Positions 14,431-61,679 of a DNA stretch of 64,000 nucleotides are shown piece after piece. The stretch spans positions 387-64,386 of the forward strand of contig JAPLYG010000013.1 of assembly GCA_026395685.1 (NCBI GenBank), given 5' to 3'. A program made the position numbers and the translations under genes. How positions within the stretch are numbered: the first letter of the stretch is position 1; the number at the start of each line of letters is the position of its first letter. This stretch comes from Candidatus Parcubacteria bacterium (GTDB lineage Bacteria; Patescibacteriota; Patescibacteriia; CAIXNZ01). The notes under the pieces are model-generated. The model searched no databases. It saw only the letters and a list, made by a program, of their open reading frames with translations, and was not told the DNA's origin.

Positions 14431-16197
14431 TTATAGAATCTTCTTAGCCAAATCAGACTTCAATTCCACATCCTCAACTTTAACCTTCCTCAAATCAACC
14501 AGCCTCAATTCAAGCTTTCTTGTCCCATTAAATTCATTCAAATTAATTTCGCAGACAATATCAACCAAATCCTCATACCTTATTTCACTGATCAAATTCC
14601 CCATACCAAAACCGATTGCTTCAAAACTTTTGACCATATTGTCATGCTTTAAAAATAATTTCAGATGCTTATTATCGCCGCCGACGGTACGAACATTTTC
14701 CACCCTTAAATTTTTGACTAAAAATAAAGGCTTGGGATTTGACGCGCCAAAAGGTTCAAATTTTTCCAGCTGTTCAAATAAGTCCCAATTCAAATCTTGC
14801 AAATTTAATTCCGCCTCAATCTCCATTCTTTCTGACAAATCTTTGCCCTGCAGCTCCTGAAGGGCAATTTCAGTTATACGTTTTTTAAAATCAGCCAGAT
14901 ACTTTCGGCTCTTTAAGGTAAAGCCGGCTGCTTGAGCATGACCGCCATAAATTTTAAAACAATCAGCCACCTTATCAAGAGCTTTAATCATATTAAATTC
15001 CGGAATCGAGCGCCCTGACCCGGCAACTTTGGCAAGTGACTTGGTTATTATTAAAATCGGTCGATTGAATTTATCTTTAATCTTGCCGGCAGCTAAGCCG
15101 ATAATTCCCAAAGGCCAATTACTTCCTTCGGCGATAATCAGTAGCTGTTTATCTATATCCGCAACTTCCTTTTTGACTTCTTCCATGATTTTATCAGTCA
15201 TGGTTTGTCTTTTGCGGTTGCTCTGCTCCAGATTATCAACTAAAGTTATTGCTTCCTGCTTATCTTCAGTCAATAAAAGCTCATATGCCGAATTAGCATG
15301 ATCCATGCGACCAGCCGCATTAATGCGCGGTCCCAGAACATAACCGATATTTTCCGAATTCATTAATTCTTTTTCCGTCACCGGCCAGACTCCGGCTTTT
15401 TCCGCCAGCAGTTTCAAGCCGATTCTTTTTGTTTTATTTAATACAACTAAGCCATATTTAACCAGGGCTCTATTTTCACCGAATAATGGCATAACGTCAG
15501 TAACTGTACCAATAGCCACCAGATCAAGCAGCCATTTTTCATAACCGGCCGAAAAAATACCCTTTTTATCCCTGGCAACAATCGCTTGCGCTAATTTATA
15601 GGCGACACCGACTCCGGCTAAATCATAAAAAGGATAATTGCAGACCTTAATTTTAGGATTAATTATGGCAAAAGCTTTAGGTAATTCTAAAGGCTCTGCG
15701 TGATGGTCAGTTATAATCACATCAATCCCCTTTTCATTGGCCAGGTCAATTTCCAAAACATTGCTGATACCGCAATCAACTGTAATAATCAGTTTTACTT
15801 TTTGTTTAGCTAAATATTTGATTGTTTTTTTATTAAGCCCATAGCCTTCCTTTTCCCGATGAGGAATATACACAATAAAATCAGCGCCCAATGTTTTTAA
15901 TACATTTGCTACCACCACGCTGCTAGTCACGCCGTCAGCATCATAATCGCCATGAATGGCGATTTTTTCTTTATCGGCAACGGCCTGATAAATTCTGACC
16001 ACGGCTTTTTCCATATCAGGAAACAAAAAAGGGTCAAGAACATCTTGGCCATAATCCGGGGTCAAAAACGCGTCAATTTGCTTTTGAGTTGTTAAACCGC
16101 GGTTAAAAAGTAACTGCAAAATCACACCCGCTATTTCCGGAAAACTCTTTTTTAATTCCAAACCTACCGGCTCTTTCAGAACCCACTTTTTTGACAT
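14431..16197 (-). CDS. recJ: Single-stranded-DNA-specific exonuclease RecJ
   Basis: DHH family motifs IAIHGDYDADGVTS and VIITDHH plus a DHHA1-like C-terminus. 588 aa. Confidence 0.85.
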   Translation of the reverse strand: MSKKWVLKEPVGLELKKSFPEIAGVILQLLFNRGLTTQKQIDAFLTPDYGQDVLDPFLFPDMEKAVVRIYQAVADKEKIAIHGDYDADGVTSSVVVANVLKTLGADFIVYIPHREKEGYGLNKKTIKYLAKQKVKLIITVDCGISNVLEIDLANEKGIDVIITDHHAEPLELPKAFAIINPKIKVCNYPFYDLAGVGVAYKLAQAIVARDKKGIFSAGYEKWLLDLVAIGTVTDVMPLFGENRALVKYGLVVLNKTKRIGLKLLAEKAGVWPVTEKELMNSENIGYVLGPRINAAGRMDHANSAYELLLTEDKQEAITLVDNLEQSNRKRQTMTDKIMEEVKKEVADIDKQLLIIAEGSNWPLGIIGLAAGKIKDKFNRPILIITKSLAKVAGSGRSIPEFNMIKALDKVADCFKIYGGHAQAAGFTLKSRKYLADFKKRITEIALQELQGKDLSERMEIEAELNLQDLNWDLFEQLEKFEPFGASNPKPLFLVKNLRVENVRTVGGDNKHLKLFLKHDNMVKSFEAIGFGMGNLISEIRYEDLVDIVCEINLNEFNGTRKLELRLVDLRKVKVEDVELKSDLAKKIL

Positions 16198-37911: not shown

Positions 37912-38406
37912 ATGATTATCAATTTCCCGAAAGATATGGGTGAAACCGTTCAACTCTGCGCCGACGCGATCGATAGCTACACTGACCCTGAAGATCCCAA
38001 AGCCCTTTCCCGTACTTGCGAAAAATTTTTCCTGGAGCTGAAAGACCAGGCTGATCTTCTACTCGAAGAACAGTCTTACGGTGTCATGACGCTTTTGGGC
38101 AAAATCAGGCTCATTAACAAAACTCAGGCAATCTTACTTTTCGAAAAGGGCTATTTGCCTTCCTGGGAGGACATCACGGTTGCGGCTTCGCGCCAGCAGC
38201 TGGTTAATGACCTCCGGACCAAAAACGACACTGTCGCCAGACAGATCATAATGATTGCCTTTTGTCTGTCCTGCGGTAGCGATATCCGCTGCGCCGGCAA
38301 AACAATCTTACGGACCTCTGGCGTTCCCAGCAACACCGAAACCCCGGTCAAAGAAGTCGGGGAAGAAAACGAAGGAGAAGAAGATGGATCAGAAGAAACC
38401 GACTGA
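37912..38406 (+). CDS. Hypothetical protein with an acidic C-terminus
   Basis: Shine-Dalgarno AAGGGAGGA. GC-rich. C-terminal EVGEENEGEEDGSEETD. Confidence 0.5.
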   Translation: MIINFPKDMGETVQLCADAIDSYTDPEDPKALSRTCEKFFLELKDQADLLLEEQSYGVMTLLGKIRLINKTQAILLFEKGYLPSWEDITVAASRQQLVNDLRTKNDTVARQIIMIAFCLSCGSDIRCAGKTILRTSGVPSNTETPVKEVGEENEGEEDGSEETD

Positions 38407-39301
38407 TCTCGTTACTTTACCTGCCGAAGAAAGAGCGAATGCGCTCAAAGTTATCACTGCCCAGTCAGGCAAACACGGCGAAAACGAGATTGAAAAACTG
38501 GCTGACACCGAAGGCGATCACTCTGCCATTGCGGTTTTGTTACGGCTCAATCCCCTGGAAATCGGCCGCCTGATCAAAACAGGCGATGTCACGGTTCCCA
38601 CCATGACCGCCATTCTGGCCAATCCTCAACAGATTGTCGAGATGCTGGCCATGGATCCGATGGCCTGGGAAAAAGAGCTCAATACGGAAAATCTTTTCGA
38701 ACTGCAGAATGAAGCGCTGGGCGTGATTTCCCAAATTCTGGCCAATACCCTTGATCGGGCCAAACAGCTTGAGATTCTAGAGGCAATCTGCGCCAACAAA
38801 AACGCTTTTTTCTATCTGTGCTTTCCCTTCATCGGGATTAACACGGACCTGGATGAAAACGAAGGCGTCAAAGGAGTCTTCCGAGAATCCAAGATTGCCA
38901 CCGAAGATCGAATTCGGGAAAAAATCCATGCTGAAACCGAACGAGTCAAGGCTGAGCTTGAAGAAAATAAAGATGAGGAGGATGAGGAGGACGACTTTGA
39001 GCCCCCTCCCAGTATCGAGACCATCGTAAGTGACGTCATCGCCAATGAACGCCAGCGAGAGCCAGTAATCGACCTCGCGGAATTCGAAGCGCGTCAAGAT
39101 CTGCTGGAGCTGATCCATGAAATCGCTCCGGAAGTTCTTACCGAAATGATGGAATTAATCTGCGAGACCGAGGATCAGGCCGGTTCCTGGGAAGGCGTCA
39201 TCAGCCAAATCAAGGAATTGCGCACCAGTGCGGAAAAACTTTTGGGACAGGAACAGGATGACGAAGAATATGTCTCCATGTTCGATCCCGAAAAGAAATA
39301 A
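38384..39301 (+). CDS. Hypothetical acidic protein
   Basis: Start refined to MDQKKPTDL after GAAGGAGAAG, overlapping the upstream stop. The EEDEEDDFEPPPS segment is acidic. Confidence 0.5.
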   Translation: MDQKKPTDLVTLPAEERANALKVITAQSGKHGENEIEKLADTEGDHSAIAVLLRLNPLEIGRLIKTGDVTVPTMTAILANPQQIVEMLAMDPMAWEKELNTENLFELQNEALGVISQILANTLDRAKQLEILEAICANKNAFFYLCFPFIGINTDLDENEGVKGVFRESKIATEDRIREKIHAETERVKAELEENKDEEDEEDDFEPPPSIETIVSDVIANERQREPVIDLAEFEARQDLLELIHEIAPEVLTEMMELICETEDQAGSWEGVISQIKELRTSAEKLLGQEQDDEEYVSMFDPEKK

Positions 39302-39320
39302 CAACCACAAGGAGGTTCCA

Positions 39321-41006
39321 ATGGCGGGTACAGCGATTGTTCGCCACGACTCCCGCCTGCTCCTCTTTCAAGCCCTCGGACATACACAGTTTGGGGGCTT
39401 ATTTTTTGACCAGGTCAAAAAAGAGGGCGCAGGCATGTCCTACGAATTTGCTAAAAAGTACTACACTGTCACTTCTGAACCATATCTGACTCGGGCTACT
39501 TACTGCGTTTTGGGCATTTGCAATCTGGGTCTGGTGCTGGCCAGCAAAAATCAGCTGGACATAGCTCTGAGCCTGATACAGAACAAAAAGCTGTTTGACC
39601 TTTTCCAGCTCGGCTGGGAAAAAATCAGCCAGCTGGTTAAGATGAAAAATTACTGCGACCAAAAAGAACTTGGCGACCAGACCTGGAACATTGAAAAAGA
39701 ATTGGCTGAAAGATTCAGCGCCGAACCAGGCAAAAACTGGATTGGTCTGGATGAATATACTAAAGCCAAGGATGAATATGAGAAAAATTATTTTACTGCT
39801 TTACTGCGGCAACACTTCAGACAGCACTTCATTGCCAAAGCCCGTGATCAGTATTCCTATGAACTGGGCGACTCTTACGTGAATAACAGCTTGTTTACCT
39901 CACTTCTGTTCAACGATAGAATGCATGCACCACTCAAACCTGAGGAATTTGCAGACCTGTACAACTGGTTTAAAAATCCTCGGGTATTGAAAATCATGCG
40001 CCTTAAGCTGAAAGACTTCAGTAAAACACTTACACAAAAACAGCGTCCCTTCTTTTGGGCAGAAGTTGAAGACAGCTTAAATTCCGCGGCTTTTGCCAAA
40101 CTGGCACTTTATGCACAGCAAGGCGACGAAGAAAGAAGCCTGAAAATTTTCTACTCCCAGTTCTATGTGGAGGCAAATCCTGATAAGATTTCTCAGGCCC
40201 GCTATGAAAAAGCCAAAGCTGAGTATAAAAGCCCTCTAAAAAACTTTGAGGATCTGCAGCTCGAGCTGGACAGGCTGAAAGAAAACATGCCTGATATTTC
40301 TGACAAACTGGCGATCATTGATGTGGTCTTAGAGCCCAGATTTGTTCCCTTGCTAACCGCTGACGACCTGACAAACATCATGGCTGCGGATAAAATGCTG
40401 TGGCAGACAAAAATCTGCTGGCCCCTTGTCAATGATCGGGTTTTTCACATTCTGCTGAAGGATAAATCCACCCAAAAGTATACCGGCCTCATGTTGGAAG
40501 ACTTTTTGGGCAATCTGCAGACGTTCACGAACAAACACATTAAAAAGCTGATTGCCAAGCTGCAGATGATGAGCAACACTCAGCTTTATAATCTGTGCAA
40601 AGAATCTGCTGATATGCGCGACTTTTTACTCAAGCACATCCGCAGAGAGCCGAACATATATGCTGATTCAATTTCAGCTGCCGACACCAACATCCTTTTT
40701 ATCCCGCCTAATGAATGGCCGCACCTGTGGCAAGTTTTTTCCTTGGAAAGCGCTGAGTTCATGTTCAAAGAATTGCGGCGTTACTACCGGGAACTAAATA
40801 TCCCCGCAGACCAGGCAGAACAAATGTTCTTCGAACGGGTAAAAATTGTTTGCCGCTTTTACCAGCGCGACAAAAAAAACCCGAAGAAAGATTATCCGAC
40901 CTGTGAAGCTCCGTATTACAATGCGGACCTGAAAAAGGCAGTGGCTCATACCCTGTCTCCCAAAAAATTTAAAGCCTTCAGCCAGAAACTGGCTGATCTA
41001 GCCTAA
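39321..41006 (+). CDS. Hypothetical large, mainly alpha-helical protein (562 aa)
   Basis: Start refined to MAGTAIVRHD after CAAGGAGG. No recognisable domain. Confidence 0.5.
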   Translation: MAGTAIVRHDSRLLLFQALGHTQFGGLFFDQVKKEGAGMSYEFAKKYYTVTSEPYLTRATYCVLGICNLGLVLASKNQLDIALSLIQNKKLFDLFQLGWEKISQLVKMKNYCDQKELGDQTWNIEKELAERFSAEPGKNWIGLDEYTKAKDEYEKNYFTALLRQHFRQHFIAKARDQYSYELGDSYVNNSLFTSLLFNDRMHAPLKPEEFADLYNWFKNPRVLKIMRLKLKDFSKTLTQKQRPFFWAEVEDSLNSAAFAKLALYAQQGDEERSLKIFYSQFYVEANPDKISQARYEKAKAEYKSPLKNFEDLQLELDRLKENMPDISDKLAIIDVVLEPRFVPLLTADDLTNIMAADKMLWQTKICWPLVNDRVFHILLKDKSTQKYTGLMLEDFLGNLQTFTNKHIKKLIAKLQMMSNTQLYNLCKESADMRDFLLKHIRREPNIYADSISAADTNILFIPPNEWPHLWQVFSLESAEFMFKELRRYYRELNIPADQAEQMFFERVKIVCRFYQRDKKNPKKDYPTCEAPYYNADLKKAVAHTLSPKKFKAFSQKLADLA

Positions 41007-45958: not shown

Positions 45959-46495
45959 TTAAATTTTTGTATTAATAGGATTATTTTGATCCTCTGCCCA
46001 TTTGGCTGGATTGGCGAAAATATAATCTCGAATTTTGGATAATTCATCGTCATTGCGGATAACACGGTCGTGGAATGATTTCTGCCAGGCGAAATTTATT
46101 TTGAATTGATTATTAATCCTCCTGGTTACGGATGATTTATATTGGAGGATTATTTTTGGTAAAACCATTTTGGTGTTCCGTAGGGAACGCAGATCTGCGT
46201 TCCCTACATTTTTACGGTATTCATCTTCATTATTATAAAATATATACAATATTCCATGAATATGGTTCGGCATCACAATAAATTCATCCAATTCACAATT
46301 TTTAAAATGTTTTGGAATTTCCTGCCAATAATCATGGGCGATCTTGCCTAAATCGTTCAATGCCTTTTCAAAATCTTTAATTTCACCAAAAAATGGCCCC
46401 CTGCCTTTTGTACATATCGTCACAAAATAATATCCAGGAAATGAATAATCATACCCCTGCCAACGATTTAATTTACGATCCTTTTTCAAAACCAT
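45959..46495 (-). CDS. REP-associated tyrosine transposase-like protein (IS200-like HuH Y1 family), copy 1
   Basis: RKLNRWQGYDYS..YYFVTICT, HuH motif MPNHIHGIL, C-terminal AWQKSFHDRVIRNDDELSKIRDYIFANPAKW with catalytic Tyr. Confidence 0.75.
   Translation of the reverse strand: MVLKKDRKLNRWQGYDYSFPGYYFVTICTKGRGPFFGEIKDFEKALNDLGKIAHDYWQEIPKHFKNCELDEFIVMPNHIHGILYIFYNNEDEYRKNVGNADLRSLRNTKMVLPKIILQYKSSVTRRINNQFKINFAWQKSFHDRVIRNDDELSKIRDYIFANPAKWAEDQNNPINTKI
46180..46207. repeat. REP-like perfect palindrome GTAGGGAACGCAGATCTGCGTTCCCTAC inside RAYT copy 1
   Basis: 28-nt perfect inverted repeat. Encodes ..VGNADLRSLRNT.. . Confidence 0.7.
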
Positions 46496-48077: not shown

Positions 48078-48635
48078 TTATTGATTAAAATTTTTAGGAT
48101 TATTCCGATCCTCCGTCCATTTGGCGGGGTTGCCGAAAATATAATCGCGAATTTTGGATAATTCATCGTCATTGCGGATAACACGGTCGTGGAATGATCG
48201 TTGCCATGCAAATTCCGTATGACCAATCTGGTGAATAAATTTTGATGATGTGGTTTTGAATGCGCCGATGATGTCGTAAATTGGTTTCCCTTGTAGGGAC
48301 AGGTCGCGACCTGTCCCTACAGATTTACCGTCATTGCCATCATCGGCGTAACCTGTTTTATCATTATTAAAATTATAATTAATTTCCAAAATCATATGAA
48401 CATGATTGGGCATCACCACCCATTCGTCTAATCGTATGTGCGGAAAATGTTTGTGCAACCATAATAATTGCTGTTTCACAATTTCGCCAATAGGGTTCAA
48501 TTTCATTTCGCCCCCGACAATTTCACCGAATCGGGGCTGACGGTGGTGGGTGCAAATGGTGATAAAATATAATCCGAGATATTTATAATCATATCCTTGC
48601 CACCTGTTTAATTTTCTGTCACGTTTTAAGAACAT
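48078..48635 (-). CDS. REP-associated tyrosine transposase-like protein, copy 2
   Basis: HuH MPNHVHMIL. C-terminus AWQRSFHDRVIRNDDELSKIRDYIFGNPAKW. 3' about 110 nt nearly identical to copy 1. Confidence 0.75.
   Translation of the reverse strand: MFLKRDRKLNRWQGYDYKYLGLYFITICTHHRQPRFGEIVGGEMKLNPIGEIVKQQLLWLHKHFPHIRLDEWVVMPNHVHMILEINYNFNNDKTGYADDGNDGKSVGTGRDLSLQGKPIYDIIGAFKTTSSKFIHQIGHTEFAWQRSFHDRVIRNDDELSKIRDYIFGNPAKWTEDRNNPKNFNQ
48293..48320. repeat. REP-like perfect palindrome GTAGGGACAGGTCGCGACCTGTCCCTAC inside RAYT copy 2
   Basis: 28-nt perfect inverted repeat. Same stem as the intergenic copy at 50753-50781. Confidence 0.7.
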
Positions 48636-50242: not shown

Positions 50243-50280
50243 CAAAGGCGCTCCCCGCTCAGCGGAGAACGCCTTTTTTA
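50243..50280 (+). terminator. Hairpin followed by a T-run after the 48878..50233 gene
   Basis: aaaggcgctccccgctcagcggagaacgccttttttat. Confidence 0.55.
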
Positions 50281-50970: not shown

Positions 50971-51375
50971 TTACCTGTTTAAATAAGTGATAGTCAGTTG
51001 CAGACATGTAGCAAATGTCCCCCACAAAAGATATGGTAGATTGGCATAGACAACCCAACGAAGCTCAGGTGCGGCCTGCCAGATAGCCAGGAGAGCCCAG
51101 ATCAACGTACCAACAACGAGCAGGATATCAAGCGAAGCCAGGAGATTATTTTTAAGCCCAAACTGGATTGGAGTGAAAGCCAGATTAAAAACAAGGTTAA
51201 GAGCAAACGGTAAGGCGACTAACCAGGCCAGCTTGCCGGTAAAAACTTTATAAAACACTGTGCCAAAAGACACGATAATAATCGCATAAAGAACTGTCCA
51301 GACCGGGCCAAAGAGCCAGGCTGGTGGTGACCAAAATGGTTTAATTAATTGTGAATACTGTGTTGGTTCATTCAT
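50971..51375 (-). CDS. tspO: TspO/MBR family tryptophan-rich sensory protein
   Basis: PPAWLFGPVWTVLY signature. Five TM helices. Confidence 0.7.
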   Translation of the reverse strand: MNEPTQYSQLIKPFWSPPAWLFGPVWTVLYAIIIVSFGTVFYKVFTGKLAWLVALPFALNLVFNLAFTPIQFGLKNNLLASLDILLVVGTLIWALLAIWQAAPELRWVVYANLPYLLWGTFATCLQLTITYLNR

Positions 51376-51385
51376 AAAATTTAAA

Positions 51386-51889
51386 TTATTTTATATAACT
51401 ATCAAAATAAATAGCATGACAAGTATAGCCGCCAGGGTTTTTTTGCAAATAGTCCTGATGATACTCTTCAGCCGGCCAGAACTTGGTAAACGGCTCCAGG
51501 GTGGTAACCACCGGCTTTGGCCACCTTTGGGAATCATTAACTATTTTTATAAAATCCTGGGCCTGTTTTAACTCCTGCTTATTTTGGTAAAATATAGCGC
51601 TTCTGTATGATGGGCCTTTATCATTGCCCTGTTGATTGAGTGTAGTCGGATTATGAATCCTAAAAAATAAATCCAAAAGCTGCCTAAAGCTGATTATCTT
51701 GGGATCATATTCGATTTCCAGGGCTTCAGCATGGCCGGGATGATTTTCATAAGTCGGCTTGGCGTTTTGACCGCCGGTATAGCCGGCTGTAATATTCAAA
51801 ACACCGGGCTGTTTTCTCATCAATTCTTCCAAGCCCCAGAAACACCCGCCTGCTAAATAAGCTTTACTGATCATATTATTTTTTGGCAA
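51386..51889 (-). CDS. msrA: Peptide methionine sulfoxide reductase A
   Basis: [13 protein letters not shown] catalytic motif. Confidence 0.85.
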
Positions 51890-52238
51890 TAAATTTTAAG
51901 GAGATGGAATTGACGCAATGGCGGATATTTTTCGGAGTCAGCTGCTCGCCTGCAAATACATGCCCCAAATGCGCGCCGCAACGAGCGCAGGTAATTTCTG
52001 TCCGAATGCCGTCAGCATCGGGTGTGCGTTTGACTGCCCCGGGTATTTCATCATCAAAGCTCGGCCAGCCGCAAGCGCTGGCAAATTTAGCCTGGGAATT
52101 ATATAACGCTGCATTGCATTGCCGGCAGACATAGACACCAGGGGCTGTGTTGTTTACATACTCGCCGATAAAAGGCGCTTCAGTGCCTTTGTCAATTATT
52201 ACCCGCTTTTCAGCTTTGGATAGTTTATTTAATTGCAT
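51876..52238 (-). CDS. msrB: Peptide methionine sulfoxide reductase B
   Basis: CRQCNAALY ... [12 protein letters not shown] zinc CxxC pairs and RHCVNSISL active site. Confidence 0.85.
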
Positions 52239-52295
52239 AAAATGTTTTAGACTGCACCTTTTGGGGATGAGATTTTATTTTTGGATTTTTAGATT

Positions 52296-52910
52296 TTATC
52301 TAATCCCTGAATCGCAGGAAAAATCAATTTTTAAATTTGCTGCTGAAGTCACTGTCACATCCTGAGCTTCACAACGAGGCAAAACTCTGCCGCCACTGGG
52401 CTGAAAATTATATTCGCCCACCGGTAAAACAACCTGATATCTGCCCTGTTCATCTGTTTGAATAACTTTATAAGGCGCGCCAGCCGGGCTATTACGATCA
52501 ATGATTTGAATGCCGGTTTGATATGGTTTATCAGCGCAAGCCGGATCAGGCGGATTTTTCATGACCGGACAAGTCGGTTCCAATATAACCTGACCGCTGA
52601 CAGTGCCTGTCTTGGATTCTGTGGGACAAGCGCTAAACTCGCAATTGGGACCTGTACGACCGACTGCCGAACCATCAGGACACAGTTTGGCTTCCATGCT
52701 ACAGGCTATTTGGTTTGTATTGTTTAAATTACCATCAATAAGCTCCACAAAATTCTGGCCATTGGCTCGGCATTGTCTGGGATATGATTCCATAACAGGA
52801 TTACCTGCTGCAACGCAGGATTCAAAGTCAGTGACTTTAGCTGGCGTTTTAAAAAGGCTGCAAGCGGAAAGTAAAAACGCTAACGATAAAACGAAAAAAA
52901 CTTTTTTCAT
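52296..52910 (-). CDS. Cys-rich lipoprotein. Paralog of 43817..44677.
   Basis: Lipobox LLSACS. DFESCVAAGNPVMESYPRQCRANGQNF. About 55 nt of near-identical DNA with the paralog (52756-52811 versus 44402-44458). Confidence 0.55.
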   Translation of the reverse strand: MKKVFFVLSLAFLLSACSLFKTPAKVTDFESCVAAGNPVMESYPRQCRANGQNFVELIDGNLNNTNQIACSMEAKLCPDGSAVGRTGPNCEFSACPTESKTGTVSGQVILEPTCPVMKNPPDPACADKPYQTGIQIIDRNSPAGAPYKVIQTDEQGRYQVVLPVGEYNFQPSGGRVLPRCEAQDVTVTSAANLKIDFSCDSGIR

Positions 52911-52920
52911 ATTGATTAAA

Positions 52921-53268
52921 TTAATTAGTATAGACTTTAAAAACCTTCTGCATTTCTTTTATCCAGCATTTTAATCTTTCATCTTCGTTCGCGTCAGCAT
53001 CTAATTTTCCCAATTCAACCGCGTATTCAAAAAATCCTTCAGCCGGCTGATTAGCTTCTCGCAGGGTAACTAAAGAGGAAAGCATGACATCATCTTTATC
53101 TAAAGTTAAGATGTTAATTTCCCCCAGCATGTGGGAGCCCGTATTCCTATCCTTGGGATTTTCGCAATTCAGCCCTATTTTGTCATATAAATCCTTATAA
53201 TAAATTGCCTGTTTATTTCTGGCGCAATTTTCTAAAATTTGCAAAGCTTTTAATGCTTTAGCGTTCAT
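52921..53268 (-). CDS. Small hypothetical protein, last gene of the lexA restriction-modification operon
   Basis: 115 aa. Same strand, 43 nt after the hsdS-like gene. Confidence 0.4.
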   Translation of the reverse strand: MNAKALKALQILENCARNKQAIYYKDLYDKIGLNCENPKDRNTGSHMLGEINILTLDKDDVMLSSLVTLREANQPAEGFFEYAVELGKLDADANEDERLKCWIKEMQKVFKVYTN

Positions 53269-53311
53269 AAATTTAATAATATTTAATTTAAAAATATTTT
53301 AGATGAGATTT

Positions 53312-54640
53312 TCATTTTTTCTTCTCAATCTCCTCCTCCACCCTCTTTTTCGCCTCCTCCAATAATTCTTTAGCTTCTTTTCTTAATTTAAAAGATTCAT
53401 TGACCAAATCAGCGATTTTTTGCTGGGTTTTAAGGGGTAAAATTGGGATAATTGTATTTTCAACCTGATCAGGCCGCCAATGGATAATAATTGAACCGCC
53501 AGCGTCTCGTTCAATTTGCATTTGGCAAATCAAAGAATTTAATACTAACGATAAATATTGAGGGACTAAATTTTTATCCTTAATTTTGAGTCGTAAGATT
53601 CCACCCGAAATTATGCCTTCAACATCTCGCCCTAATAAAACCGTGATGCCCGGAGTCGCATCCTTGCTTAATAAAATCTCGCCTTTTTGCGGCTGATATT
53701 TATCTTTCAATTCATTATACAATTTTTCGCTCAAAAACTGCTGATTATTGTCATTCAAGCCGAATTTAGACATATTAGAAACGCGAATAAAGGGTTTCCC
53801 TTCCTCCACATATTCTTCACTACCAGGCTCAATCCCCTTTTGCCAGGAAACCAAATCGCTTAATTTTTCCTTCTTAACTTTTATTTTACTTAAAATATTT
53901 TCGTACTTCGGCTGAAAAAATTCCGCATCAATGCGCTCAGATCGCAAGCAATCCTTTAAAGTAGTTGTAAATGACAAATCTTCTTCCGATTTTAAATCCT
54001 TAATGCCTAATTCTTCAAGCAGCAAATCTTCGGCTTGAGCGTACTGTGAGTTTGACTTTTCAAATATTTTATCTGCTTTAACATATAATTTTTCAAAAAT
54101 ATCAAGATTTTTCAATAACGGCATTACAATATTTTCGACATTACCAGTGTTTAAATGTAATTGACCTGTCGCGCCGGTAATTTCACGATTAATTTGAAAT
54201 TGTCCATACTTACTCTTTAAAAAAGCCCAAATGTAAAAGGAATTAATTTTTGATTCTCTTATTACTGTAACTTCTGACACAGTGCCCTTTGAATCATTAG
54301 CACCTGTAAAAATATTAACCTTACCTATTGAACCAAAACCTATCGATGAAATTAAAATATCATTCTTCCTCAGGTAAAAAATATTATCGTCTTTTGCGTT
54401 CAACAAATCCCCACTAAGAAAGAAATTAGAGTCTAAATCCCCTGATCTGACAATTGGCACCTCAAAATCGCCGTATTCCTTAGGCGTATTTCCCCGCAAA
54501 ATAGAGGCGGCATCGCCTAGTGAAATAACTTTAAATTTTTTTATTTTATTTAGATATTCCAAATACTCCGGTTGATAGTATTCCGGGTCTAGGCGCAGGG
54601 CGCCTTCGAGGTGGGATTTGGGGATTATTGAGTAGGTCAT
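53312..54640 (-). CDS. Restriction-modification specificity subunit (HsdS-like, two target-recognition domains). Likely the S/B subunit of a BcgI-like Type IIB system.
   Basis: Internal duplication RLDPEYYQPEY / RIDAEFFQPKY at the TRD starts. Conserved ILPLKTQQKIADLV (PLxEQxxI) regions. Confidence 0.7.
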   Translation of the reverse strand: MTYSIIPKSHLEGALRLDPEYYQPEYLEYLNKIKKFKVISLGDAASILRGNTPKEYGDFEVPIVRSGDLDSNFFLSGDLLNAKDDNIFYLRKNDILISSIGFGSIGKVNIFTGANDSKGTVSEVTVIRESKINSFYIWAFLKSKYGQFQINREITGATGQLHLNTGNVENIVMPLLKNLDIFEKLYVKADKIFEKSNSQYAQAEDLLLEELGIKDLKSEEDLSFTTTLKDCLRSERIDAEFFQPKYENILSKIKVKKEKLSDLVSWQKGIEPGSEEYVEEGKPFIRVSNMSKFGLNDNNQQFLSEKLYNELKDKYQPQKGEILLSKDATPGITVLLGRDVEGIISGGILRLKIKDKNLVPQYLSLVLNSLICQMQIERDAGGSIIIHWRPDQVENTIIPILPLKTQQKIADLVNESFKLRKEAKELLEEAKKRVEEEIEKKK

Positions 54641-54649
54641 ATTACTATT

Positions 54650-55558
54650 TTATTTTATTACATCTTCTGATTCTAATTTAACGCCATTGGAGTATATCGT
54701 TCCAACATTCTTAAGAAATTCCACAAAAGACTTATCATTTACAATAAAAGTAGTTCTGTTTTCAGAAGATATTGTTATTGAATCTCTAATAACCCCATAA
54801 TTAATAAAATCTGGTAAGGGGAACTCATATGATAACCATTTCTTTTCTTCCATATCTATATCTTTAAAATTAACATCCCCATTTTGTATTTTCTTGTAAT
54901 CCAATTTTGTTAAATAGAGATTGGCGGTTGTTACCACTACTGGTAAATAAATAAAATGTTTAAACTGTAAAAAATTCACTTTATTACTAATTCCTTCAAT
55001 ATATTTTGGGATTTTATTTTCCAGCGCATATGAACCATGAGCTGCTTGTCTAATAGCTTTATAAATCTTATCGTCCTGATTTCTATTAATAGTAGTGAGC
55101 TTATCATTAGTTTCAATAGATTGATTGCAATAATTGAAATCACCAATCAAGCGATACCCTAAATCGGGAAACGTGAGTTGCCTCGTTAAATACTTCCTTT
55201 CATACATTAAATTATTATCGATTATATCTGAAAAAATAAAAAGCGGCTTTTTGTCTAAACTTTCGTTTAAAAATATCCAATTTTTGATATTACTATTTGC
55301 CTTTTTACATTCTATTATTAGAAATAATAAAGTTTTTTCTTCAATTCCTTTTACACCCCTGACGGCCACAATATCAATACTACCATGAGCGCCTAAAATG
55401 GGACCATTTGAACTCGGATGTGTATAGGGAAACTCGGATACTGCTTTAAATATCCATGATCCATGATCTTGATCACAATTTCTAATAGTATCTAGACACC
55501 ATTTTTGAAATGGATATCCCGTTTCATTTAATAATTTTACTGCTTTCTCTTTTTCCAT
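54650..55558 (-). CDS. PD-(D/E)xK nuclease-like hypothetical protein
   Basis: Start refined to MEKEKAVKLL, 1 nt after the upstream stop. GSIDIVAV ... LFLIIECKK matches the hD...ExK core. Confidence 0.45.
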   Translation of the reverse strand: MEKEKAVKLLNETGYPFQKWCLDTIRNCDQDHGSWIFKAVSEFPYTHPSSNGPILGAHGSIDIVAVRGVKGIEEKTLLFLIIECKKANSNIKNWIFLNESLDKKPLFIFSDIIDNNLMYERKYLTRQLTFPDLGYRLIGDFNYCNQSIETNDKLTTINRNQDDKIYKAIRQAAHGSYALENKIPKYIEGISNKVNFLQFKHFIYLPVVVTTANLYLTKLDYKKIQNGDVNFKDIDMEEKKWLSYEFPLPDFINYGVIRDSITISSENRTTFIVNDKSFVEFLKNVGTIYSNGVKLESEDVIK

Positions 55559-55559
55559 A

Positions 55560-56126
55560 TTATTTATTTTCTCTAATTTTCTTCCTTTCGTCTGCAATTG
55601 AGGGTGCCACATAAAGAACCTGACAAAATTGTTTAAGTAATTCTAATATATCCTCTGCATCAGATTTATTTATATCAGTATCCGTACCTGGTTTTCTAGG
55701 ATGCGCCGCATCATTCCCTACCAACCGCACTTCATGAGCCCAATCTTTTAAATCTTTAGTTATAATACCTTGAGAAAATAGCCATTCGATTTGTTTTTCC
55801 AGTTTATCCTTTTCATCTGCTCCTTTATCTAGACAAATATTCTGTATAGCTCTTCTTGCCATCACAGAGGCAGCCCTGAATGCACTAGCAGAAAAGCAAA
55901 TATTCGCCTCCTCAAAATCTTTTCTTATTGGTTCTAATATCCTAGAATCTATGGGCTCAGGTAATGGCATAGGATATTTTTCACTACTGTGATTATTTAC
56001 TAAAATTACTTTCTGACAAGAATTGCACTGCCCCATCCAATATTCACCGTGTATAGAATTAAAGCCGCCCCGATTTGATAGTTCTACATATTTATGACAA
56101 TAAGGACAATAAATGGATGTATTCAT
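55560..56126 (-). CDS. DUF4145-like protein with an N-terminal zinc ribbon
   Basis: CPYCHKYV...CNSCQ ribbon plus a C-terminal ...RLVGNDAAHP... helical domain, as seen in R-M/abortive-infection neighbourhoods. Confidence 0.55.
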   Translation of the reverse strand: MNTSIYCPYCHKYVELSNRGGFNSIHGEYWMGQCNSCQKVILVNNHSSEKYPMPLPEPIDSRILEPIRKDFEEANICFSASAFRAASVMARRAIQNICLDKGADEKDKLEKQIEWLFSQGIITKDLKDWAHEVRLVGNDAAHPRKPGTDTDINKSDAEDILELLKQFCQVLYVAPSIADERKKIRENK

Positions 56127-56139
56127 AATTTTAAATAAA

Positions 56140-58083
56140 TTAAAAATTTAAATTTTCCTTTTTCGCAAACTTCAAAAATTCTTCGGCAATTTCATCCAAA
56201 TCATGATCTAAAACCTTCTTGCCCTTCATATCAACCGCCAATTTTCCTTCGGCATCTTTTTTATAAACATAATCCCCTGAATTGTCTTTGCCTGACTTTT
56301 GAGATACGGCCATGAAAATATTATAATCCTTAGGCGCTTTTTCCTTCTCTTTGAATTTCTGCAAAAATAAAACCGAAGTTTTGGTGCCGGTATGCGGTTT
56401 AAAAGTGTTTACATTCAACCCGACTACGGCTAAAATTCTCGCCTTGTCCATTAAAAATTGCCGCACGTGTTGCATGTTAGTATTATTAAAAACGCCTTGG
56501 GGTAAAACAATAGCTAGTCTGCCACCCGGCTTAACCAATTGTACTGAACGCTCAATAAATAAAATATGGCGTTCCATTTTATTTTTTAATTTACCAGCTT
56601 CATTTTTTGACAATTCATACTGATTTAAAAGCGTCTTCTCGATTATTTCTCCCGCAAACGGAGGATTTGATAGCAATATATCATAATCAAAGAACCTGAA
56701 GTTCTCCTGATTATCTTTATTTTTATCATAGTCATCAAATTTATGCAGCAAATTTCTTAATTCGCCTCTGGCCCTTTCCTTTTCAGCCTCATTCCCCATC
56801 CAATCCCTAGGATTTAAAGAATTTAATTTAAAAATATGGGTTTTACCATCACCGGCAATCAGCATTAATGCTCGTGAAATTTTAACTGATTTATCGTCAA
56901 AATCAATGCCAAACAGATATTTTTTCGCATAATCGCTCATAGCCTCTCGATCCATATGCAAGTAATTATCATAAACATAACGCATGGCGTGGATTAAAAA
57001 TCCGCCGGAACCGCAGGCAGGGTCAATAACATATTCATTCGGCTGAGGGCTTAGCATTTTTACCGCCATATTAATTACATGGCGAGGCGTAAAATACTGC
57101 CCCTTTTTACCTTTAGCAACATCGGGCAATAAATACTCGAAAGCCGAATCAATGACTTCAAGATTAGCATCATATAATTTAATTTTTTCCAATTGCCCCA
57201 CGCAGACGTCCAGATGATTGGGTGACAGTTCTATTTTCTCATAATCATTAAAAATCCCCGGCCATTCTTTCCTGGCTGAATCAAATAATTTGCTGACTTG
57301 CGCCATGGTCAATTCAGGATCCTTATACTGTCTGAAATATAAAATCTTTTTTTCACGCTTTTTAGCTTCTTTTTCATCAAAAAGTTTGGCGTATATCAAT
57401 TTAAAAATTTCATTAAAACTATCCACGCCGGAATTTGCCAGAACTAATTCTTCTAAGATTTTAATAATATCCACCAAATCGAATTCGCTTTCAAGGTCGG
57501 ACAAAGTCACATCCTCAGTCAAAACATCCTCAATTGACTGATCGGCTCTGGGAATATCCCTTAAGGTATTTTCAAATTCATGCGGGTGAGATCGGTATAA
57601 AATGACTCTTTCATTGCCATTTGACCAGACTCCGATTGGCGCTCCCTCAGAATTTACATAGCTTTTTAATTGTTCCAAGCCTTTCTTCTCATCCGGGCTT
57701 TTTAACTCAATAATCACCCAAGGAGTCTCCTTATCTTTTTGATAAATTACAATATCAGCGGCTTTACCATGTATTTCTCGGCCAAAATGGATATCCTTTT
57801 CAATTCCAATGCGGTCTATCGGGTAACCATAATCCTTAATAATCTTATGAAGCCACAGCTGGCGGATAATTTCCTCCGGTTTACTTAAATTTTTTTCCTC
57901 ATTATAAACTAAAATATCCTTAGCGCGCACAGGATCCTTGATATAATACTTCCCCTCTTCAACTTCAAAAATATCCAAAACATCGCCAAGCTTAATGCCC
58001 TTAAATTCTTTTAACCCATACTGAACATCGGGATCTTTAAAAATTTTACTTATGATTTGATTGGATAACTCTTTCTTAAGCAT
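56140..58083 (-). CDS. Fused restriction endonuclease / N6-adenine DNA methyltransferase (BcgI A-subunit-like, Type IIB/IIG). N-terminal HsdR-N-like PD-(D/E)xK domain plus a gamma-class MTase.
   Basis: GKAADIVIYQKDKETPWVIIELKSP (D...ExK), motif I VIDPACGSGGFL, motif IV LLSNPPFAG. 647 aa. Confidence 0.75.
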   Translation of the reverse strand: MLKKELSNQIISKIFKDPDVQYGLKEFKGIKLGDVLDIFEVEEGKYYIKDPVRAKDILVYNEEKNLSKPEEIIRQLWLHKIIKDYGYPIDRIGIEKDIHFGREIHGKAADIVIYQKDKETPWVIIELKSPDEKKGLEQLKSYVNSEGAPIGVWSNGNERVILYRSHPHEFENTLRDIPRADQSIEDVLTEDVTLSDLESEFDLVDIIKILEELVLANSGVDSFNEIFKLIYAKLFDEKEAKKREKKILYFRQYKDPELTMAQVSKLFDSARKEWPGIFNDYEKIELSPNHLDVCVGQLEKIKLYDANLEVIDSAFEYLLPDVAKGKKGQYFTPRHVINMAVKMLSPQPNEYVIDPACGSGGFLIHAMRYVYDNYLHMDREAMSDYAKKYLFGIDFDDKSVKISRALMLIAGDGKTHIFKLNSLNPRDWMGNEAEKERARGELRNLLHKFDDYDKNKDNQENFRFFDYDILLSNPPFAGEIIEKTLLNQYELSKNEAGKLKNKMERHILFIERSVQLVKPGGRLAIVLPQGVFNNTNMQHVRQFLMDKARILAVVGLNVNTFKPHTGTKTSVLFLQKFKEKEKAPKDYNIFMAVSQKSGKDNSGDYVYKKDAEGKLAVDMKGKKVLDHDLDEIAEEFLKFAKKENLNF

Positions 58084-58699
58084 AATTTCTTGATAAATTT
58101 TTAATTAATTTACCTAAAATATAAGTTTCCTCAGTCACCGGTATTCTTTCATATTTAGGATTTTCAGGCTGAAAATATGTTTTTTTATCACGATTTATTA
58201 ATCTTTTAACGGTGGTTCCATCCATGGTTCTGGCAAGAACGATTTCATTATCTTTAAATTCCTTGGCTTTAGTAAAAAGCAGCAAATCGCCGTCCAAAAT
58301 ATTGGCGCCTATCATGGAATCCCCATAAGCCTTTATAATTATTAAGTCACAAGAAAACTGATGAACTTCCGGTGATAGTTCCATCCAAACATCTCTTTGC
58401 TCAAATAATTCTACCAAAGGCCCGCACGAGCCCAGACCAGCCACATTAACTAAGGGCATAACATCTAGTGATTCAAACCCCCGTTGTAAAATATTAATAG
58501 ATCTGGCCAGGCCTTCATTGCGCTTAATCATTTTTTTGTCTTCTAATTTCTCCAACAAATCCAAAACCGCCTGGTTTGAGCTGACACCAAGTTCTTTTTT
58601 CATTTCTTCAAATGACGGGATATTGCCTTCAGCTTTAAGCCAATCGTAGATAATTTGAAGTAATTGCTTTTGTCTGTGGGAGATAATTGAGGTTTTCAT
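58076..58699 (-). CDS. lexA: LexA repressor (winged-helix N-terminus plus S24 autopeptidase)
   Basis: N-terminal RQKQLLQIIYDWLKAEGNIPSFEEMKKELGVSSNQAVLDLLEKLEDKKMIKR. C-terminal VAGLGSCGP cleavage region, GDSM Ser motif and TVKRL Lys. Confidence 0.8.
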   Translation of the reverse strand: MKTSIISHRQKQLLQIIYDWLKAEGNIPSFEEMKKELGVSSNQAVLDLLEKLEDKKMIKRNEGLARSINILQRGFESLDVMPLVNVAGLGSCGPLVELFEQRDVWMELSPEVHQFSCDLIIIKAYGDSMIGANILDGDLLLFTKAKEFKDNEIVLARTMDGTTVKRLINRDKKTYFQPENPKYERIPVTEETYILGKLIKNLSRNYA

Positions 58700-58707
58700 A
58701 TACTTAT

Positions 58708-58736
58708 ATTCTACTGACCATTTAGTCAGCCGTCAA
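58708..58736 (-). promoter_or_regulatory. lexA promoter TTGACG-N17-TAGAAT (minus strand)
   Basis: -35 at 58736-58731, -10 at 58713-58708. ATG at 58699. Confidence 0.55.
58714..58729. promoter_or_regulatory. Candidate LexA operator CTGAC-N6-GTCAG occupying the promoter spacer
   Basis: Perfect 5-bp inverted arms, located exactly between -35 and -10. Confidence 0.45.
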
Positions 58737-58791
58737 CTAATGTTATCCACAAAAAAATACCGGCTAACCAGTATTTAATTATAATCTCAAA

Positions 58792-60656: not shown

Positions 60657-61679
60657 TTATCTCGCAGACAAAACCGGCTCCCCCATTTTATAATTGATGA
60701 AAAAAGCATCAGATACATCATCAATTTTATTTTTCCAATATGTTCCATAAAGCGCAGTCGCAGTATCAGCAGATTCAATCCAGCGCAAGACTCCTCCATG
60801 CTCAACAGCATAAACTTTGGTATCGGATTGAATCTTGACCATTTTAATGCCCGGACGATAAGTCACATTGCCGCCCAGAGGTATATTAGCCAGCTGCTCG
60901 GCAGTGACAACAGTTACTCCGCTGAAACTGCTAAACCAGGTGTAATAAACCTTGTCAGTGGGAAAAACATAACGCTTAGCGTCTGCCCCGCAAAAATAAA
61001 CCGTGGTAGACCCGCTAAGCTTGATTCTGGAACCGGAAACACAAGTCGCGGGCGTGGCACCAACAACCAAGCTCTTGTCAGTATTGATATCAGGACTGGC
61101 ATTTAATGAATCAGTAATGCTATAACTGCCGGGATAACGCGCGTTAACTAGACTTAAATAAGGATTAATGGCAGTGTTGTCAGGCAAGCGAATCTCAAAA
61201 TGCAAATGCGGGCCGACATTTTCAGCATTGCCGCTATCACCCATCCAGCCGATTAGCTGTCCTTTGGTAACTGTTGCTCCATGGACAATGCCCGGCGCAT
61301 AAGCATTGGCTATGCCGCCCAGACCGTCATCAGTGCCGGGCGTATCATTGTTAACATGCAAATAATGATAAGTATAATGATCGCTGTCTTCCAAAGAAAT
61401 GGCATAGCCGTAGTCAGCTTCGGGATCAACAACATAGCGCACTCGCCCGTCAATGCAAGAATATAAGGGCATCATTTTCGTGCCCATCAGATCAATACCT
61501 TCATGCAGATGACCACTCCGGGCATCGCCGAAACTGTCAGTAAAAGTCACTGACTGTTCAGTCGGAAAAAAGATTGATCGCGTTTCCTGAGCCGAAGCAT
61601 TGGTGCCGATAAAAATTAAAACTAAAACAATGACGGGAATTATGGTAAACAGCATTTTTTTAGTTAGCTTTTTTTTCAT
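60657..61679 (-). CDS. M23-family (LytM-like) metallopeptidase with a C-terminal extension
   Basis: HLHEGIDL ... D ... HLHFEI motifs. Signal peptide. Confidence 0.7.
   Translation of the reverse strand: MKKKLTKKMLFTIIPVIVLVLIFIGTNASAQETRSIFFPTEQSVTFTDSFGDARSGHLHEGIDLMGTKMMPLYSCIDGRVRYVVDPEADYGYAISLEDSDHYTYHYLHVNNDTPGTDDGLGGIANAYAPGIVHGATVTKGQLIGWMGDSGNAENVGPHLHFEIRLPDNTAINPYLSLVNARYPGSYSITDSLNASPDINTDKSLVVGATPATCVSGSRIKLSGSTTVYFCGADAKRYVFPTDKVYYTWFSSFSGVTVVTAEQLANIPLGGNVTYRPGIKMVKIQSDTKVYAVEHGGVLRWIESADTATALYGTYWKNKIDDVSDAFFINYKMGEPVLSAR

Follow-up and report, generated by a model that had tools for sequence, protein, structure and literature searches.

Why would a gene for LexA stand at the head of an operon encoding a restriction enzyme, when in the usual picture the SOS response relieves restriction? 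The question is raised by six genes on the minus strand of a 64,000-nt stretch of DNA (hereafter, the window) from a Candidatus Parcubacteria metagenome-assembled genome (MAG), the nearest genome in GTDB being a Falkowbacteria MAG. Bacteria of the candidate phyla radiation (CPR) represent a large share of bacterial diversity, and have tiny genomes, mostly without CRISPR. The original prediction, made from the letters of the window, described an SOS-gated Type IIB-like restriction–modification island with two extra genes, possibly parts of a new multi-component defence module, between the nuclease–methyltransferase and its specificity (S) subunit. Based on the analysis reported here, it is probable (roughly 0.6) that the region represents a lexA operon type common in CPR bacteria (Patescibacteria), in which LexA is combined with a Type IIB-like enzyme, made up of a restriction–modification fusion protein (RM) and an S subunit, and with swappable defence cargo.

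Organization of the Putative Operon

In the order of transcription, the six genes encode LexA, the RM of 647 amino acids (aa), proteins of 188 and 302 aa, the S subunit, and a 115-aa protein. The genes are packed as originally described: the lexA stop and the start of the 647-aa gene overlap by 8 nt, within ATGCTTAA, the stop of the 188-aa gene and the start of the 302-aa gene are separated by 1 nt, and the remaining intergenic gaps measure 13, 9 and 43 nt. Four internal terminator-like matches were detected, all of them weak and intragenic, against 6.6 expected, and no convincing internal terminator or promoter was found within the six-gene stretch. Based on the tight spacing and the lack of convincing internal terminators, we infer that the six genes form a single operon, with no sign in the terminator and promoter scan that lexA would be transcribed separately.

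The RM Fusion Enzyme and Its Specificity Subunit

The RM fusion gene (56140–58083, minus strand) is predicted to encode a PD-(D/E)xK endonuclease, a helical connector and a gamma-type N6-adenine methyltransferase in one polypeptide. Pfam analysis placed HSDR_N_2 (PD-(D/E)xK nuclease) at residues 69–178 and N6_Mtase at residues 310–600, and the protein matches the full-length MTase_I model of PADLOC (PDLC03034) with 624 bits. Among proteins of solved structure, the best match was to the Type IIB enzyme BsaXI, namely its RM subunit (8w0p). A family profile (A2) built from 18 RM family members matched BsaXI RM with an E-value of 3.7 × 10−42, in an alignment that covers both domains and includes the nuclease motif (...D-i-v-v...i-i-E-v-K in the family; ...D-v-l-v...F-I-E-V-K in BsaXI). 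The 18-sequence alignment shows no variation at E95, D110, E126 and K128 or in the motifs DPACGSGGF and NPPF. The four nuclease residues align with E73, D90, E105 and K107 of BsaXI, which are essential by mutagenesis and have been reported as absolutely conserved in Type IIB enzymes (PMC11997821). The BcgI-type nuclease–methyltransferase fusion of the original prediction is borne out by the BsaXI match and the intact catalytic residues, and the motifs quoted there (GKAADIVIY..VIIELK, DPACGSGGFL and NPPF in RM, and IDIVAV..IIECKK in the 302-aa protein) are all present.

The S subunit gene (53312–54640, minus strand) encodes a 442-aa protein with two target-recognition domains. Two Methylase_S stretches were found by Pfam, and matches were obtained to PADLOC Specificity_I (1.4 × 10−39) and to full-length specificity models. 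No open reading frame (ORF) for HsdR, a helicase or a Res-type translocase was found in the window or in the related loci examined, which agrees with the two-domain S and missing HsdR noted at the outset. Judging by architecture, the 647-aa protein and S would constitute a BcgI/BsaXI-type (RM)2S Type IIB-like enzyme, predicted to cut both strands on either side of a bipartite site and to methylate that site, as is characteristic of Type IIB enzymes. A canonical Type I system was considered and rejected, as HsdR is lacking and the 647-aa protein matches HSDR_N_2, not HsdM_N, at its N-terminus.

The RM family is large, with more than 4113 proteins at E < 1e-30. Except for the query's own 100% record, the top 120 matches are all 65–79% identical to it, and they originate from Parcubacteria, Magasanikbacteria, Moranbacteria, Falkowbacteria, Microgenomates and Woesebacteria.

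LexA and the lexA Promoter

The product of lexA (58076–58699, minus strand; 207 aa) consists of a winged-helix DNA-binding domain and an S24 self-cleaving peptidase domain, which match LexA_DNA_bind (PF01726; 39.2 bits) and Peptidase_S24 (PF00717; 65.5 bits), both above the cut-offs; its TIGR00498 score is 110.8 bits, with the cut-off at 110.95. Across 57 LexA homologues, Ser128, Lys165 and Gly93 are invariant, while residue 92, just before Gly93, is Ala in 48 sequences and Cys in eight, the window LexA having Cys. The cleavage site of this LexA is, as judged from the alignment, most likely Cys92–Gly93, as in UmuD, rather than Ala87–Gly88, to which a first look had pointed. It is the only LexA homologue in the window, and with genomes as small as those of CPR bacteria, a second lexA per genome is not expected.

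Upstream of lexA, a sigma-70-like promoter (58708–58736, minus strand) is formed by TTGACG (58736–58731) and TAGAAT (58713–58708), with a 17-nt spacer and 10 of 12 consensus matches. The spacer between the −35 and −10 hexamers harbors the palindromic operator CTGAC-TAAATG-GTCAG (58714–58729; core GAC-N6-GTC), so that the CTGAC-N6-GTCAG site of the original prediction lies within the lexA promoter itself. The exact palindrome occurs once in the window; a tolerance of one mismatch raises the number of matches to three, as compared to 0.40 expected by chance, the other two being located at 4832 and, inside an M23 peptidase gene, at 61550. A score-matrix search gave a weaker match at 14630, inside recJ, and the related locus L018 has a strong match (5796, inside a gene). 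The matches at 61550, 14630 and, in L018, 5796 do not resemble promoter sites.

The layout of −35 hexamer, palindrome and −10 hexamer is common to nine related loci, and the core GACYAWWYRGTC is kept at the same position in all nine of the first loci. In locus L012, the operator is altered on both arms (CGAC..GTCG). Among the metagenome loci with lexA, the exact GAC-N6-GTC core was found in 31 of 49, and the rest have GAAC/AGTC-type variants. Outside the lexA promoters of loci L024–L103 (702 kb), the degenerate form GACY-N4-RGTC was encountered eight times, as compared to about 23 occurrences expected from base composition; this scarcity may reflect avoidance of the operator sequence.

An exact DnaA-box 9-mer (58743–58751, minus strand), which reads TGTGGATAA on the minus strand (TTATCCACA/TGTGGATAA), is located just upstream of the −35 hexamer. 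The exact 9-mer lies no farther than about 160 nt upstream of lexA in 31 of the 57 loci compared, and a tolerance of one mismatch raises the number to 40, against a background of 0.87% of 220-nt windows; the loci concerned are L017–L022 and many of L024–L096. Conservation of the box suggests a second regulatory input at the lexA–RM promoter, perhaps replication status. In L024 and L036, GGGTGTGGATAA, which includes the DnaA box, is also found at the end of the gap between RM and S, just before the S start.

Linkage of lexA to RM Genes in Related Loci

The position of lexA relative to the RM gene was compared in the ten loci first found, in seven close loci from GTDB genomes, which were obtained by a single-protein query of genome contigs, and in the 67 metagenome loci having at least 700 nt upstream of RM. 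The lexA gene lies directly upstream of RM in nine of the ten, six of the seven (Vampirococcus being the exception) and 49 of the 67, respectively, and the distance between the two genes in the metagenome loci is mostly −32 to +41 nt. It is also immediately upstream in both independent loci linked to the 302-aa gene (L001, and L011/L012, which are two copies of one locus). Over 1128 pairs, LexA identity follows RM identity (Spearman 0.75; Mantel r = 0.71, p = 0.001), which indicates that LexA and RM co-diverge. In these comparisons, an upstream lexA is the common arrangement for this RM enzyme family in CPR bacteria, and a family trait. The original prediction had regarded restriction under LexA as unusual: the co-oriented, overlapping lexA has stood, while the idea of an oddity has not, the arrangement being common for the enzyme family in CPR and not peculiar to this genome.

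Another head module, composed of a 70-aa XRE HTH_3 protein followed by a 110-aa UPF0758_N protein (RadC N-terminal, helix-hairpin-helix), stands directly before RM in L040, L041, L043, L045, L048, L075, L099 and other loci without LexA. In a Saccharibacteria MAG (L022, 6186–7999), recA is found immediately upstream of lexA–RM. The RM family member of Candidatus Vampirococcus lugosii (L023, 7992–12794) is 51% identical and has no LexA; when read with genetic code 25, this locus shows a 485-aa ATPase-like gene between RM and S.

Exchangeable Genes between RM and S

In 57 of the 63 metagenome loci that have both genes, RM and S are at least 257 nt apart, with same-strand ORFs in between, and in the other six the gap is empty. 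Among the empty-gap loci, L039, L066 and L077 keep LexA, as does L021 of the genome set, which has an empty gap as well. In total, 78 gap ORFs from the metagenome and earlier loci fall into 55 BLAST clusters. A family scan, which covered 64 of the 78 ORFs, revealed DUF3800/PDC-M04A, NYN, Schlafen AlbA_2, trypsin-like peptidase, DUF4145/PD-T7-4, RnlA, PemK/MazF, AAA_15 with OLD-type TOPRIM (AriA/GajA/Old models), KAP NTPase, PD-T7-1, PD-T7-5, AbiLi and mad3. As far as the profile matches indicate, the gap families are mostly of anti-phage or toxin types.

The closest relative of the window locus, L017, has RM and LexA that are 96% and 91% identical to those of the window, and different gap genes: a trypsin-like PDC-S45 protein and a 278-aa protein in the gap, with a GmrSD Type IV enzyme after S. 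DNA similarity between the two loci (88% over 58756–56120) begins at the promoter and extends 20 nt beyond the RM stop; it is absent over the cargo and reappears exactly at the S start codon. Within S, the similarity skips the first recognition domain (54545–54063) and then runs to the end of the gene. Comparison of the S genes of the window and L017 (11701–13026) shows that only this target-recognition domain has been replaced, with 84–90% identity kept over the first 96 nt of the gene and over its 3′ half; the replacement looks like a recent specificity swap. Across the family, S identity does not go along with RM identity (rho = 0.11), and this, together with the domain swap, fits an enzyme with diversifying specificity.

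Cargo ORFs begin 3–20 nt past the RM stop, and a comparison of 58 loci revealed no conserved flanking motif, either behind the RM stop or ahead of the S start. The short spacing and the lack of a shared motif suggest that cargo is exchanged through recombination within the conserved ends of the two genes. An integron-like cassette array was rejected, as shared flanking sites are absent from the 58 loci and no integrase lies beside the unit. The RM–S gap and the position after S are slots for changing, presumably stand-alone defence or toxin genes. The proposal that the middle genes form a new multi-component module does not agree with these data, since the content of the slot changes from genome to genome and six related loci are empty.

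Cargo Genes of the Window

The first gene in the gap (55560–56126, minus strand) encodes the 188-aa protein, which matches DUF4145 in Pfam (5.3 × 10−21) and PD-T7-4 in PADLOC (2 × 10−13, over residues 5–163). The motifs CPYC at residue 7 and CNSC at residue 34 make up a Cys4 zinc ribbon, and R134-x7-H142 has the spacing seen between R146 and H154 in the active site of RAZR (PMC13017515). PD-T7-4 is identical with RAZR, a single-gene abortive-infection HEPN RNase that works in E. coli, is activated by assembly around phage ring proteins such as portal, and cleaves RNA (PMC13017515). The 188-aa protein is a homologue of RAZR/PD-T7-4, with the same zinc ribbon, DUF4145 HEPN domain and R-x7-H spacing, and is predicted to act in the same way; unlike RAZR, it is a distant CPR homologue embedded in an RM operon and does not have its own promoter. 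The DUF4145 protein, to which no role had been assigned in the original prediction, can in this way be given a likely one. DUF4145 was noted in restriction–modification operons as early as 2013 (PMC3710099).

The gene for the 302-aa protein, p302 (54650–55558, minus strand), would be read as an ORF of 320 aa reaching 55612 if its start were set mechanically; with the ATG at 55558, it yields the 302 aa of the database protein P0001. The product, a putative nuclease of a rare PD-(D/E)xK family, has no match in the profile libraries searched, including Pfam and PADLOC, and 34 homologues among 5.8 billion proteins. Residues E42, D62 and K85 do not vary in this family, and E83 hardly does; a Foldseek search of the 302-aa model against PDB gave nothing significant for the whole chain. 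Relatives are found inside LexA–RM–S loci, and alone in several genomes. In L009 (235–8908) and L010, an Omnitrophica contig, a canonical Type I system with HsdR has a 55% identical homologue placed between its hsdM and hsdS genes, and a Bro-N protein and a 116-aa ORF lie beside this homologue. In the defence island of L013 (6337–8651), which also has a PvuII-type restriction–modification system, a 292-aa homologue directly follows a SMODS–SLATT_4 pair, 4 nt from the SLATT stop, and might act as an effector like those of cyclic oligonucleotide-based anti-phage signalling systems (CBASS). A family found alone, inside a canonical Type I system and beside a SMODS–SLATT pair does not behave as a fixed part of one module. 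The middle genes are not housekeeping genes.

The last gene, p115 (52921–53268, minus strand), occupies the variable position after S. Its product was an orphan by word search, and 249 distant relatives were recovered by full HMMER. The protein is of winged-helix type and resembles the DNA-binding domain of O6-methylguanine methyltransferase (MGMT), while the PCHR motif was not seen in its sequence; in one relative, the domain is fused to MrcB_N and HNH. Speculatively, the 115-aa protein may bind modified or damaged bases.

Proposed Function and Alternative Explanations

At the sequence level, where the SOS-gated Type IIB reading finds its support, the comparisons establish the identities of the genes, the conservation of linkage and operator, the intactness of the catalytic residues and the turnover of the cargo. 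Damage induction, restriction activity and autonomy of the cargo are what we infer for the living cell, and events would then proceed as follows. With lexA translationally coupled to the RM gene, LexA on its GAC-N6-GTC operator would keep expression low, and (RM)2S would mainly maintain methylation of its bipartite target. DNA damage or single-stranded DNA, originating, for example, from degraded restricted phage DNA or from prophage induction in neighbouring cells, would serve as the trigger: RecA on single-stranded DNA would stimulate self-cleavage of LexA at Cys92–Gly93, and the operon would be de-repressed in a pulse, with the restriction enzyme and the abortive-infection cargo rising together. 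The cargo would be swapped via recombination in the conserved 3′ end of RM and 5′ end of S, with no dedicated recombination site. The more specific proposition that in much of the CPR the SOS switch is wired to immunity, the cell's own lexA heading a conserved Type IIB enzyme with a recombination-driven slot for dozens of interchangeable abortive-infection effectors, is put forward tentatively, at somewhat under even odds.

Several observations weigh against the proposed model. Since the operator is confined to lexA promoters in the 702 kb of related loci, and no operator-like palindrome lies upstream of the recA adjoining lexA in L022, these loci give no sign of a wider SOS regulon for this LexA. 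About a quarter of the metagenome loci (18 of 67) are without LexA, and most of these have the XRE HTH_3 and UPF0758_N (RadC-N-like) proteins instead, so that the head regulator is evidently exchangeable. The island has a G+C content of 0.345, the lowest of any 5.8-kb stretch (window median, 0.388), and lexA, at 0.357, groups with the island rather than with the flanks (0.41–0.47). The ORFs flanking the lexA-to-S unit, which are mostly housekeeping genes, are unrelated between loci (33 clusters for 35 upstream ORFs, and 37 for 38 downstream); together with the island-like G+C of lexA, this fits a regulator travelling with the cassette. As R and M are fused in one polypeptide, induction cannot alter the ratio of restriction to modification. 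Finally, in the methylation-associated defence system (MADS), mad3 and mad4, whose place is between the methyltransferase and S genes, are needed for defence, whereas methylation proceeds without them (10.1101/2023.03.30.534895), which calls for caution as to the independence of the cargo.

Much of this would also be expected if the LexA-like protein were a controller dedicated to the cassette, similar to C proteins, which keeps RM low and times its establishment in a mobile lexA-to-S unit, and which neither responds to damage nor acts as a global SOS regulator. The exchangeable head module, the unrelated neighbours, the low G+C of lexA, the confinement of the operator to its own promoter, the co-divergence of LexA and RM and the TIGR00498 score just below the cut-off are all in favour of such a role. 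A controller of this kind would, however, have no need for a peptidase, and yet its Ser–Lys dyad and (A/C)–Gly site show little or no variation in 57 sequences; in addition, no integrase or transposase was found beside the unit in the loci examined, the same M23 peptidase gene adjoins the unit in both the window and L017, and the window contains a single LexA homologue. We regard a dedicated controller as unlikely. A mobile or phage origin of the unit was rejected, since RM relatives on viral contigs are at most 45% identical and have no LexA. It is also conceivable, and rather improbable in our estimation, that RM–S merely senses unmethylated sites while the gap genes act as interchangeable effectors, as in effector swapping of CBASS and Thoeris or in MADS. 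One or more effector-like gap genes are tightly coupled between RM and S in 90% of the loci, RM and S distantly resemble MAD2 and MAD5, one gap ORF matches mad3, and the MADS requirement cited above points the same way. On the other hand, the six empty-gap loci (among them L039, L066 and L077, with LexA) and L021 retain RM–S with no gap gene, the nuclease tetrad is invariant in 18 sequences and the same as in Type IIB enzymes whose activity is biochemically established, the 302-aa family occurs alone, MAD6–8, which are mandatory in MADS, are absent, and RAZR is autonomous in E. coli (PMC13017515).

The remaining two explanations are less probable still. Contact with RM–S might silence the cargo toxins until a phage anti-restriction protein releases them, as in the guard arrangement of PrrC and EcoprrI. 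PrrC and RloC represent the classic pattern of toxins embedded in restriction operons, which the placement of the cargo recalls; DUF4145 has been reported from such operons (PMC3710099), and members of the 302-aa family have been found flanked by M and S genes in systems of two different kinds. RAZR, by contrast, is triggered by ring-forming phage proteins (portal), which are sensed by its own zinc-finger domain (PMC13017515), and the docking of 55 unrelated cargo families on one conserved RM–S surface is hard to picture; a guard is considered very improbable. The lowest likelihood is assigned to a housekeeping role, in which RM–S would serve DNA repair as an epigenetic methyltransferase and its nuclease domain would leave foreign DNA unrestricted. 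Such a role would account for an RM unusually conserved across CPR phyla, as seen in the identities of its top 120 matches, and for its linkage to lexA and, in one genome, to recA; it is at odds with the diversification of S and the swapping of recognition domains, with the invariant catalytic residues of the nuclease, and with a locus that is a hotspot of anti-phage genes. The LexA-headed operon with a Type IIB-like enzyme and swappable cargo is the reading that we prefer.

Comparison with Known Systems

Every ingredient of the operon is already known: Type IIB enzymes, autoregulation by LexA, restriction operons with embedded toxins, and immune operons controlled in response to DNA damage. 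Similar to BsaXI and BcgI, the enzyme has nuclease, helical connector and N6-adenine methyltransferase in one chain, together with a separate Type I-like two-domain S subunit and no translocase, and its RM is close in size to BcgI-A. It differs from BsaXI in that the 916-aa BsaXI RM can be aligned with it up to about BsaXI residue 626, the knob and paddle of BsaXI being without counterpart in the window RM, and from both enzymes in that cargo splits the RM and S genes, lexA is at the operon head, and cleavage is predicted.

As in autoregulated SOS operons, the repressor has a winged helix and an S24 domain, together with the Ser/Lys dyad and a cleavage site of (A/C)–Gly type, a palindrome overlaps its own promoter, and lexA is the first gene, with the downstream genes probably co-transcribed. 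The lexA–dinF operon of E. coli is an example of this order. Unlike in such operons, the genes downstream encode a restriction enzyme and abortive-infection toxins instead of repair proteins, and the operator core is GAC-N6-GTC as opposed to CTGT-N8-ACAG or GAAC-N4-GTTC.

CapH/CapP (10.1101/2022.04.27.489752) and CapK/CapS (PMC13373217) are regulators that raise the expression of immune operons after DNA damage, and it has been proposed that damage-responsive regulators link front-line restriction to later abortive infection (10.1101/2022.04.27.489752; PMC13373217). The window operon resembles those controlled by CapH/CapP, CapW/BrxR and CapK/CapS in having a repressor at the head of a defence operon that is inactivated by damage, which for the window LexA is a presumption. 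It is unlike them in that the sensor would be the canonical RecA–LexA route in a single polypeptide, and in that the operon includes the restriction enzyme itself. LexA is not mentioned in the CapH/CapP (10.1101/2022.04.27.489752) or CapK/CapS (PMC13373217) papers.

Accessory defence genes between restriction–modification subunit genes are also found with PrrC in EcoprrI, with the rlo genes and in DUF4145 restriction–modification operons, whereas the scaffold seen in the window carries at least 55 unrelated families in one slot, and its cargo is coupled to lexA. Likeness to MADS is seen in an RM with an N-terminal nuclease-like domain that resembles MAD2, in an S that resembles MAD5, and in the genes between them; the NCBIfam scores are, however, 328 against a cut-off of 720 for MAD2 and 147 against 400 for MAD5. 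Membership in MADS was rejected because of these sub-threshold scores and the absence of the mandatory MAD6–8; no other mad model was matched by the six proteins.

In the literature searched, no description was found of lexA being directly and widely coupled to a restriction enzyme among CPR bacteria, although an earlier report cannot be excluded, and none of the diverse, regular RM–S cargo slot or of the 302-aa nuclease family.

Other Features of the Window

Downstream of p115, genes for a lipoprotein, msrB, msrA and TspO/MBR (50971–52910) follow on the same strand, with gaps of −14 to 57 nt. The first strong terminator 3′ of the island lies at 50276–50244, and transcription from the lexA promoter may continue into these genes. 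On the other side, a terminator-like hairpin of the gene preceding lexA is located at 58776–58755.

Farther away, two paralogues of about 180 aa (45959–46495 and 48078–48635, minus strand) have weak matches to Y1_Tnp (IS200-like, REP-associated tyrosine transposase type) and share a nearly identical C-terminal stretch. Three ORFs without a Pfam match, two of which encode very acidic proteins, are found on the plus strand at 37912–41006, where the G+C content is 0.45–0.49 as compared to the window mean of 0.39; this segment may be foreign DNA.

Possible Implications for CPR Immunity

The phage resistance of CPR bacteria is poorly understood, and the lexA–RM–cargo loci may bear on their immunity. 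If the proposed reading is true, restriction and suicide effectors placed under a damage repressor would reverse the picture in which SOS relieves restriction, and LexA would become one of the few regulators known to control immune operons by sensing damage. Damage would raise restriction and suicide defences together, and the DnaA box suggests that replication status may feed into the same promoter. The conserved RM and S genes can serve as anchors for finding new defence genes in uncultivated bacteria. The slot between them would, if the reading holds, offer a ready collection of defence genes not yet characterised, the 302-aa nuclease family among them; many of its 55 families are without annotation.

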